This document shows positions 55,501 through 58,053 of a stretch of 64,000 nucleotides of DNA, one piece after another; position 1 is the first letter of the stretch; every line of letters starts with the position of its first letter. The position numbers and the translations under genes were made by a program. A model generated the notes under the pieces. The model was given only the letters and a program-made list of their open reading frames with translations. It did not search any database and was not told the origin of the DNA. Source of the DNA: Eledone cirrhosa (Eukaryota). The DNA is taken from the NCBI GenBank assembly GCA_964016885.1, contig OZ024742.1, positions 88,350,001 to 88,414,000 of the forward strand. The letters run 5' to 3'.

Positions 55501-57535
55501 CAACTAATTAGTTTCTGCAATGGGATAAATACAGTTACGTAATATAACCGTCGAGAATTGATTGTGTCATCAGGGAGTCTATTCTCAGCTAAGTCTCCAG
55601 GCAATGCGCGGACACTGGGGACTCATATAAAAATATTAATAATTCGGTAGATGGAACAGCTAGCGGGCACTGGATTCCATGCAGTGAAAAGCTCGCTGTC
55701 TCTGGTCAAATGGCAGATTCTAAAGAATCAATCACTAGACACTGAGGCTAGTCGGTAGGAGTGGGATGGTAAGATGACAGAAGCCTACAACCACACCAAT
55801 AAATTAGTAGTGGTTTTGGTAGGTTTGCTCAACAAATAAATAATTGGAGATAAATAAAGAGAATTTAGTATATCTACTAACATATGCATGCAGATGTACG
55901 CTAATGCTAGCAAATACATAAGTTATGTCATAGTACCTAGGTGGTTCAATGCAGGAGGATGCAGAACAATAATATGAAAGACGTAAAATAAGAAGATTTT
56001 AAAAGAATTAAAAAAATTAACTTACTTACTAAAATTTTCACTCCAACTAATTAGTTTCTGCAATGGGATAAATACAGTTACGTAATATAACCGTCGAGAA
56101 TTCATTGCGTCATCAGGGAGTCTATTCTCAGCTAAGTCTCCAGGCAATGCGTGGACACTTTGGACTCATATAAAAATATTAATAATTCGGTAGATGGAAC
56201 AGCTAGCGGGCACTGGATTCCATACAGTGAAAAGCTCGCTGTCTCTGGTCAAATGGCAGATTCTAAAGAATCAATCACGTGACACTGAGACTAGTCGGTA
56301 GGAGTGGGATGGTAAGATGACAGAAGCCTACTACCACACCAATAAATTAGTAGTGGTTTTGGCAGGTTTGCTCAACAAATAAATAATTTGGAGAAAATAT
56401 AGAGAATTTAGTATATCTACTAACATATGCGTACAGATGTACGCTAATGCTAGCAAATACATAAGTTATGTCATAGTACCTAGGTGGTTCAATGCAGGAG
56501 GATGCAGAACAATAATATGAAAGACGTAAAATAAGAACATTTTAGAAACAATTAAAAAAATTAACTTACTAAAATTTTCACTCCAACTAATTATTTTCTG
56601 CAATGGGATAAAGACAGTTACGTAATATAACCGTCGAGAATTCATTGCGTCATCCGGGAGTCTATTCTCAGCTAAGTCTCCAGGCAATGCGCGGACACTG
56701 GGGACTCATAGATAAATAATTATAATTCGGTAGATGGAACAGCTCGCGGCGACTGGATTCCATGCACTGAAAAGCTCGCTGTCTCTGGTAAAATGGCAGA
56801 TTCTAAAGAATCAATCACGTGACACTGAGGCTAGTCGGTAGGTGTGGGATGGTAAGATGACAGAAGCCTACTACCACACCAATAAATTAGTAGTGGTCTT
56901 GGCAGGGTTGCTCAACAAATAAATAATTTGGTGATAAATATAGAGAATTTAGTATATCTACTAACATATGCGTACAGATGTACGCTAATGCTAGCAAAAA
57001 CATAAGTTATGTCATAGTACCTAGGTGGTTCAATGCAGGAGGATGCAGAACAATAATATGAAAGACGTAAAATAAGAACATTTTAAAAATAATTTTAAAA
57101 AATTAACTTACTTACTAAAATCTTCACTCCAACTAATTAGTTTCTGCAATGGGATAAAGACAGTTACGTAATATAACCGTCGAGAATTCATTGCGTCATC
57201 AGGGAGTCTATTCTCAGCTAAGTCTCCAGGCAATGCGTGGACACTGGGGACTCATATAAAAATAATAATAATTCGTTAGATGGAACAGCAGGAGGGGACT
57301 GCATTCCATGCACTGAAAAGCTCGCTGTGTCTGGTCAAATGGCAGATTCTAAAGAATCAATCACGTGACACTGAGGCTAGTCGGTAGTAATTGGATGGTA
57401 AGATGACAGAAGCCTACTACCACACCAATAAATTAGTAGTGGTTTTGGCAGGTTTGCTCAACAAATAAATAATTTGGAGATAAATATTGAGAATTTAGTA
57501 TATCTACTAACATATGCGTACAGATGTACGCTAAT
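19498..57535 (-). repeat. Tandem array of about 70 copies of a 541-546 bp unit carrying a hammerhead motif (satellite or retrozyme-like), with higher-order repeats
   Basis: agaatttag recurs at 19501, 20046, ... 57490; (57490-19501)/70 = 542.7 bp. Units are highly similar and carry shared diagnostic variants. Confidence 0.97.
19682..19763 (-). ncRNA. Type I hammerhead ribozyme motif (first of about 70 copies, one per unit)
   Basis: Minus strand: ACUCC CUGAUGA c GCAAUG aauucuc GACGGUUA uauuacg UAACUGUC uuuaucc CAUUGC a GAAA CUAAUUAG U U GGAGU. Stem I ACUCC/GGAGU, long stem II, palindromic stem III ACUAAUUAGU, triplet GUU. Predicted cut between 19687 and 19686. Confidence 0.85.
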
Positions 57536-57831
57536 TCTTTAGAATCTGCCATTCGACCAGAGACAGCGAGCTTTTCAGTGTATGGAATCCAGTCCCCGCT
57601 AGCTGTTCCATCTGCCGAATTATTATTATTTTTATATGAGTCCCCAGTGTCCGCGCATTGCCTGGAGACTTAGCTGAGAATAGACTCCCTGATGACGCAA
57701 TGAATTCTCGACGGTTAAATTACGTAACTGTCTTTATCCCATTGCAGAAACTAATTAGGTGGAGTGAAGATTTTAGTAAGTTAATTTTTTAAATTCTTTT
57801 TAAAATTTTTCTTATTTTACGTCTTTCATAT
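57534..57831 (+). repeat. Inverted partial monomer (about 300 bp) capping the array
   Basis: Reverse complement of the unit segment from atatgaaagacg to gattctaaagaat; runs into (TA)n. Confidence 0.95.
57684..57765 (+). ncRNA. Hammerhead motif in the inverted monomer (U16.1 reads G, probably inactive)
   Basis: actcc CTGATGA cgcaatg...cattgca GAAA ctaattag g t ggagt, readable directly on the plus strand. Confidence 0.75.
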
Positions 57832-57875
57832 ATATATATATATATATATATATATATATATATATATATATATAT

Positions 57876-58053
57876 ATAGGAACCAGTAAGACCCCGACAG
57901 CTGAGCTCAAGCCGTTTCGACGGCTAGCCGTCGAAACGGCTTGAGCTCAGCTGTCGGGGTCTTACTGGTTCCTATTACCCACTCTACTACCTCAAGTATT
58001 GAGTACTTTGGTGCGTTATGGTCCACCTGGTTCCTTACCACTTTTCCTTCGTT
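57876..58053. mobile_element. Foldback element with a perfect 100 bp palindrome (57876-57975), same family as 10447-10698
   Basis: Palindrome centred on cggct|agccg at 57925/57926. The unique tail is the reverse complement of 10447-10523. Confidence 0.88.

Follow-up and report, generated by a model that had tools for sequence, protein, structure and literature searches.

Animal non-LTR retrozymes are described as non-coding, AT-rich units arranged in tandem, each with one type I hammerhead ribozyme (PMC7229834; 10.64898/2026.07.22.740005). Their multimers range from dimers up to 62-mers in coral, and up to 300 units are given in Li, Clavereau and Pollet 2026. Penelope elements have been proposed as the mobilisers of retrozymes, and unequal crossover has been proposed to drive their local growth (PMC7229834; 10.64898/2026.07.22.740005). 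Both the class and its link to Penelope are already in print.

Penelope-like elements leave 5'-truncated, partial tandem copies together with an adjacent inverted copy, often with a tail at one end only, and they show a bias towards microsatellite targets, which is (TA)n in the case of Naiad (PMC8557442). In vitro, the Penelope reverse transcriptase (RT) acts on a target in which both strands are cut and extended, and the tail lies between two RT start sites; these sites have no homology to the target and are used alike on both strands (PMC11167929). Non-coding passengers of Penelope elements are known, including Chlamys MRC1 and Chlamys-N4 (PMC8557442; PMC9977147). Penelope elements also carry minimal hammerheads of type I, in which a base is bulged out between A9 and G10.1 (Cervera and de la Pena 2014, PMC4209133). 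Retrozyme insertion and the origin of the inverted arms, tails and microsatellite bias of Penelope elements are named as open questions in this literature (PMC8557442; 10.64898/2026.07.22.740005).

In this work, we describe a 38-kb array of a ~542-bp repeat, present in ~70 copies within a window of 64 kb (the whole stretch of DNA that was analysed). With good confidence, we regard the repeat as an abundant hammerhead-carrying element that was pasted into (TA)n by a Penelope-like RT and endonuclease and then grew in place by block duplication. To what has been published, the locus adds an array of satellite size in which both founder ends are preserved, counts for a rule by which the ends are paired, and evidence for a (GA)n run born from the element. 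It is likely that we see here the birth of a satellite from a single insertion whose two original ends are still intact.

The array, its hammerhead and its growth

Between one partial unit on the left and another on the right, the array has 69 full units of 538-546 bp; partial and full units alike are on the + strand in the repeat scan (Table 1). It is followed by a single inverted match that ends at 57831, and the switch to an inverted partial unit reported in the preliminary description is confirmed. By exact comparison with other units, the match on the forward side extends to 57535 and that on the inverted side back to 57534, which leaves an overlap of exactly 2 bp. The inverted copy begins inside the GATTCT-AA-AGAATC hairpin, whose stem is weak (~ -3.5 kcal/mol), and the junction sequence occurs once in the 3.0-Gb assembly. 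On the right, the array passes into (TA)n as previously proposed, although the letters in common are only ATAT (4 bp) and not catat, the C being outside the repeat. On the left, AGAGA (19499-19503) is common to the array and to (AG)25, which directly adjoins a (TA)31 run that the preliminary description does not mention. The 3' ends point outwards and both lie in microsatellites, again as first described.

Table 1. Features of the array and of two comparison elements, with positions in the window
Feature	Position	Strand
(TA)n run, left half of the likely target microsatellite	19391..19453	
(AG)25 run between (TA)n and the element, likely expanded from the element's own terminal CTCT	19453..19503	
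Tail of 114 nt, from the long start site (phase 138/142) to the short one (phase 256), terminal on the long arm only	19499..19612	-
Long arm, 69 full and two partial units, ribozyme sense on the - strand	19499..57535	-
Example of the type I hammerhead motif, from the last full unit	57126..57207	-
Inversion junction with 2-bp overlap (AT)	57534..57535	
Partial GATTCT-AA-AGAATC hairpin with which the inverted arm begins at its 5' end	57534..57546	+
Inverted (short) arm, with its end at the short start site, phase 256	57534..57831	+
Hammerhead motif of the inverted arm, with G in place of core U16.1 (57759), predicted to be inactive	57684..57765	+
(TA)25 run, right half of the likely target, ATAT in common with the element end	57828..57878	
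GIY-YIG Penelope-like remnant for comparison, with two arms that are 91% alike and (TA)n at either side	7004..10300	
GIY-YIG Penelope-like remnant for comparison, with two arms that are 90% alike	58942..61201	

The hammerhead motif, which was found by eye and then checked by covariation, belongs to the - strand of the array and, in the inverted copy, to the + strand. Read on the - strand, it has a stem I of 5 bp followed by CUGAUGA, a bulged C and a stem II of 6 bp; after an extra A come GAAA, a palindromic helix III and the cut site GUU. Each array unit contains such a type I motif, and 39 of the 66 array copies detected pass a strict core pattern; the units are taken as non-coding. Among 125 distinct copies of the family, selected on the CUGA.GA side only, the columns of GAAA, helix III and the 3' side of stem I, all of them outside the selection, are 95-100% conserved. 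Stem II covaries in the same copies, with double-sided changes in three steps across subfamilies. A pattern spanning the core has 1199 exact matches in the genome, many of them at unit spacing. The hammerhead fold lies 1.2 kcal/mol above the minimum-energy fold, and an Rfam search of the unit returned no hammerhead match at the gathering or E-value thresholds; the motif is atypical in its extra A before GAAA and in its GUU triplet. It is, on this evidence, a predicted self-cutting motif. The type described in PMC4209133 and the array motif have in common G10.1-C11.1, a long helix II, a short helix I, the bulged base and a small palindromic helix III, the last suggesting activity as a dimer. 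Peculiar to the array motif are the conserved extra A between C11.1 and G12, the GUU triplet and a 37-nt loop II with a hairpin of its own.

Like the non-LTR retrozymes, the array unit stands in tandem with a type I hammerhead and is taken as non-coding, and as far as sequence can tell, the repeat appears to have the testable features of this class. At 542 bp it exceeds the circles of 170-400 nt (PMC7229834) and falls within the range of 51-972 bp (10.64898/2026.07.22.740005). In Xenopus, 24 of 57 families match known elements (10.64898/2026.07.22.740005), whereas no similarity to Penelope terminal repeats was found here. Inverted arms, fixed starts and microsatellite ends, which we count below, are undescribed in the accessible parts of the two retrozyme papers (PMC7229834; 10.64898/2026.07.22.740005). 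A literature search of mainly open journals, without the supplements, which may bear on start-site homology, returned nothing on the insertion ends or inversions of retrozymes or on a CT stutter of Penelope.

Adjacent array units differ at 18 or more positions, and 58 of the 69 have a partner within 6 differences elsewhere in the array, since near-identical blocks of 6-8 units recur at lags 3, 6, 9, 15, 16 and 32. The units form 21 roughly equidistant lineages, and the edge units are unique at both array ends. Multi-unit blocks are far more alike than adjacent monomers, as is the case in satellites with higher-order repeats, and the later expansion at the DNA level that had been proposed is well supported by them. 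The longest arm elsewhere measures 3467 nt (216 arms) and is also the top match in a search for long arrays, in which no other long array was seen among the 39 scored of 4514 candidates. Because of this length, we place the founder at a few to ~20 units and ascribe the remainder to DNA-level duplication. Marks of A-to-G editing were not seen in the array (8 vs 12) or in dispersed copies (13 vs 22, P=0.6). Genome-wide, patterns internal to the unit are in excess on the reverse strand (307 vs 156 and 1445 vs 1100), which hints at other long arrays of the 542-bp family.

The inverted arm differs from the array majority at 12 columns, the units themselves at 6-18. It carries private substitutions found in none of 70 units and is at least 10 mismatches away from every one of them, and it therefore dates from the founding and not from a recent switch. 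One of its variants is common only to the adjacent last unit (1/70), which is 14 mismatches away.

Start sites and flanks across the family

The element end fused to (TA)n has 2638 exact matches in the genome, and a control has 0; the short-site sequence inside the unit has 2545. For a sample picked regardless of ends, we used the first 100 listed of the 1199 core matches, which correspond to 65 loci; contig C1 carries every one of them, and subfamilies near that of the window are over-represented. Thirty-five of these loci are inverted and 30 single-armed, some of the latter hiding very short inverted arms. The 3' ends of 91/100 arms lie in (TA)n. Microsatellite flanks with inversions are the rule in other copies, as the earlier account required, and an inversion with microsatellite 3' ends is the normal footprint of the family. 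Among the non-inverted 5' ends, 17 of 30 are near (TA)n against a background of 17%.

Two sites account for 92/100 arm ends in this sample. At the short site, unit phase 256, 49/100 arms end, all 49 into (TA)n; at the long site, phase 115-146 and mostly 138-142, a further 43/100 end, 39 of them into (TA)n. The remaining 8/100 end away from both sites, which are 114-118 nt apart. The two kinds of end are paired: among the 35 inverted loci, 29 have one long and one short end, 6 have one off-site end and none has two ends alike. A wider set of 170 loci, which includes loci selected by their ends and from which duplicates were removed, contains 94 inverted loci with the same outcome (80 long plus short, 14 with one off-site end, 0 with two alike). 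The array fits this pairing, with the long site on the left and the short site on the right.

Microhomology priming had been put forward as a part of the integration; as the means of picking the start it does not hold up. Both start sites carry AUAU, and at least 6 ATAT/TATA words can be read in the unit, yet the other words (at least 4) are rarely used as ends; because of this, TA microhomology does not pick the start. Protein or RNA structure is likely to fix the start sites.

On the RNA, the long site reads UCUCU-AUAU. Long ends that were not selected for CT have at least 4 CT units in 19 of 46 cases, and in 17 of these 19 TA follows at once. The partner short ends of such loci begin with TA in 35/35 cases and with GA or CT in 0/35, and a GA run beyond the far (TA)n is present at 1/34 loci, compared with 2/46 controls. 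Inside units, the long site has at most 3 CT in 101 copies, and genome-wide there are 0 internal copies with an additional AG, compared with 463 normal ones. The left merger via AGAGA stands as described, but with no GA at the partner ends and no extra AG in internal copies, (GA)n as a pre-existing target is disfavoured. Its probable source is the CTCT of the element itself, the target being (TA)n; the simplest reading is RT slippage at insertion, and expansion after insertion, helped by the adjacent (TA)n, is a less simple alternative. The (CT)n run of the element at 58942-61201 sits at the short arm with no CT seed evident, and some compound microsatellite runs may arise otherwise than from an element seed.

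Whole insertions have also been duplicated at the DNA level. Loci L142 and L144 (contig C1, ~212.08 and 212.93 Mb) are the same insertion with its flanks, in opposite orientation and 850 kb apart, and L145 and L152 each have a locally duplicated insertion.

Mode of insertion and its alternatives

Several traits of Penelope-like elements recur in the family, namely the inverted 5'-truncated copy with outward 3' ends, seen in the window as at the 35 inverted loci, the one-sided tail, the two fixed start sites and the microsatellite or AT-rich target. From this footprint we infer a Penelope-like enzyme as the inserter. The family differs from Penelope-like elements in its tail of 114-118 nt, which is longer than their published 30-40, and in having no ORF. 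In vitro, Penelope RT showed no difference between strands (PMC11167929), whereas the array family pairs one site with each arm; unlike the in vitro sites, both sites of the array carry target-matching AUAU, and (CT)n that is probably new appears at one of them. In the 542-bp family, two start sites are mapped on a short RNA, the pairing follows a strict rule and a stutter is proposed for one site, all of which the existing in vitro system could address.

Under the favoured reading, both target strands would be cut within (TA)n, and each cut end would prime its own reverse transcription, one at the long site and the other at the short site, which lies ~115 nt closer to the 5' end of the RNA. 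Head-to-head joining of the cDNA ends via a few common bases would leave the 3' ends pointing outwards and give one of the arms a tail. The primer would likely slip on the UCUCU of the RNA at the long site and create a new (CT)n/(GA)n run, and the array would then lengthen by duplication of multi-unit blocks. A more specific version is tentative, and we lean slightly against it as a whole: a dimer of Penelope RT may insert circular ribozyme RNA asymmetrically, with a subunit for each start site, a telomerase-style stutter on UCUCU may write (CT)n/(GA)n into (TA)n, and one insertion, perhaps of rolling-circle cDNA of up to ~20 units, may have become the 38-kb satellite with both founder ends. 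In general, the earlier proposal of insertion by Penelope RT/GIY-YIG followed by recombination is upheld by the footprint in other copies and by the block duplications, while microhomology does not choose the start.

The structure of the arms was compared at 82 inverted loci, a further 12 being dropped for an identity under 80%. Neither arm is contained in the other at 19 of the 82, and locus L157 has arms of 2106 and 2069 nt, ~four units each; consequently, fold-back of one cDNA cannot explain all loci. These cases point to two separate syntheses for the arms, while the other 63 loci also allow fold-back. Overlap at the junctions has a mean of 2.8 nt over 76 junctions, compared with 1.4 in simulation (P=2e-9); 20 junctions with larger gaps or overlaps were left out of this set, as was the window. 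The measure is permissive, the window scoring 7 by it against an exact 2. The 2-bp microhomology of the preliminary description is real as a sequence feature, but 37% of simulated junctions reach 2 or more, so the overlap at this one junction is within chance and was rejected as stand-alone evidence. The position of the switch inside the hairpin is likewise correct, but the hairpin is not a breakpoint hotspot in the family, since 4/172 inverted arms end there against 7.6 expected.

Ends of long arms (at least 300 nt) are concentrated near the predicted cut: 35/132 have their ends within a stretch of 63 nt that surrounds it and reaches just 3' of it, where 15.3 are expected, and 11/132 stop in the next 63 nt beyond. 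This excess of 5' ends fits templates opened by the ribozyme, in a stretch that is AT-rich and indel-prone and where alignments may stop early. Divergence between the arms of a locus has a median of 1.3% against 1.7% to the best other locus, a difference that is not significant (P=0.19, 54 loci). At L157, units are 0.1% apart across both arms and 2.2% from the best other locus sampled, and at L109 the values are 0.1% and 1.3%; a single RNA template is suggested by these few young loci. L157 (G000:C353:20345-24521) is very young, lies on a 31.6-kb contig and would be a good example of one template copied by a rolling circle.

Penelope-driven insertion could also have produced the short arm by fold-back, the first cDNA priming on itself ~190 nt back and being copied to the second target strand at a TA word. 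The contained arm at 63/82 inverted loci, with near-perfect palindromic centres at several, would agree with such a course, as would the variant that the inverted arm has in common only with the adjacent last unit. We consider it improbable: 19/82 loci and L157 cannot be built in that way, and fold-back gives no reason why the second end should always fall at the other fixed site and pass over other TA words. The shared variant has an estimated ~6-7% chance of being homoplasy, in a unit 14 mismatches away. A later template switch or repair at the satellite edge, triggered by the hairpin, is more improbable still. The junction does lie in the hairpin with its 2-bp overlap, and the array clearly recombines, but the end of the inverted arm coincides exactly with the family's short site in (TA)n, as do 2638 others, its distance from every unit speaks against a recent copy, and the hairpin is not enriched among breakpoints.

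That the inversion is an assembly chimera at a difficult array edge has, in our estimate, only a slight chance. At 95-98% identity the junction was not bridged by any contig of four public runs or by any raw RAD read of a fifth, but these runs contain at most 0.52 of the words of the stretch and may come from other individuals, and their contigs can show presence, not absence. A chimera would have to account for private substitutions found in none of 70 units, for an end at the exact family site and for a layout seen at 35/65 loci. We give an equally slight chance to movement of the family by LINE-type twin priming instead of a Penelope-like element, in spite of the pieces in the window that we take to be LINE-like RT. 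L1 twin priming is known to yield inverted, truncated insertions (PMC2837659); here, the second arm starts at a fixed site and not at a free internal one, the tail is one-sided, and neighbouring GIY-YIG elements have the same anatomy.

Neighbouring elements

The two Penelope-like neighbours for which the same layout had been claimed (Table 1) are indeed both two-armed inversions with microsatellite ends. The first has a 61-nt tail on its right arm only; in the second, the left arm is ~35 nt longer, with (TA)n on the left and (CT)n(TA)n on the right. A scan of 8 ORF pieces gave Pfam GIY-YIG matches in 3; two of these exceed the cut-off, and the third scores 22.5 with a cut-off of 22.6. These matches belong to the neighbouring elements, the 542-bp unit being too short for the ORF with RT and GIY-YIG that marks an autonomous Penelope-like element. 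Comparison of the unit with the Penelope remnants of the window gave no significant similarity, no arm ran straight into a Penelope ORF at the 25 loci with ORF matches, and a partner element was not found in the window or in the flanks of the fetched loci. Chlamys elements generally share 3' sequence with an autonomous family, unlike the array unit with respect to any partner found so far, and their clade is reported without canonical hammerheads, whereas the array unit has one (PMC8557442; PMC9977147).

A frameshifted ORF at 10780-12486 resembles, by eye, a Penelope RT with a C-terminal GIY-YIG-like stretch; Pfam gave no match to it at E 0.05. Its close relatives (84-94% protein identity) are found near loci L045, L067 and L115. 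Both GIY-YIG elements have hammerhead-like 3' motifs, seen by eye near 10060-10100 and 61050-61090, whose sequences bear no relation to the array unit.

A second small non-coding family has the same layout between (TA)n runs at 57879-58052 and 10447-10696. Its palindromic core is identical over 94 nt in one case (100%) and 97% alike over 171 nt in the other, and one arm has a tail of ~80 nt. A tail-only piece lies at 58813-58890, and the family is also found beside loci L033, L084, L159 and L165. A third inverted non-coding element, at 58092-58669, again lies between (TA)n runs, with arms 91% alike over 134 nt and a hammerhead-like CUGACGA...GAAA on the - strand near 58290-58330, recognised by eye. 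Elsewhere in the window are the ORFs at 273-1834, presumably the LINE-like RT pieces mentioned above, and, at 15849-16083, two tandem copies of a 115-bp repeat that ends in (TA)n and looks to us like an octopod SINE.
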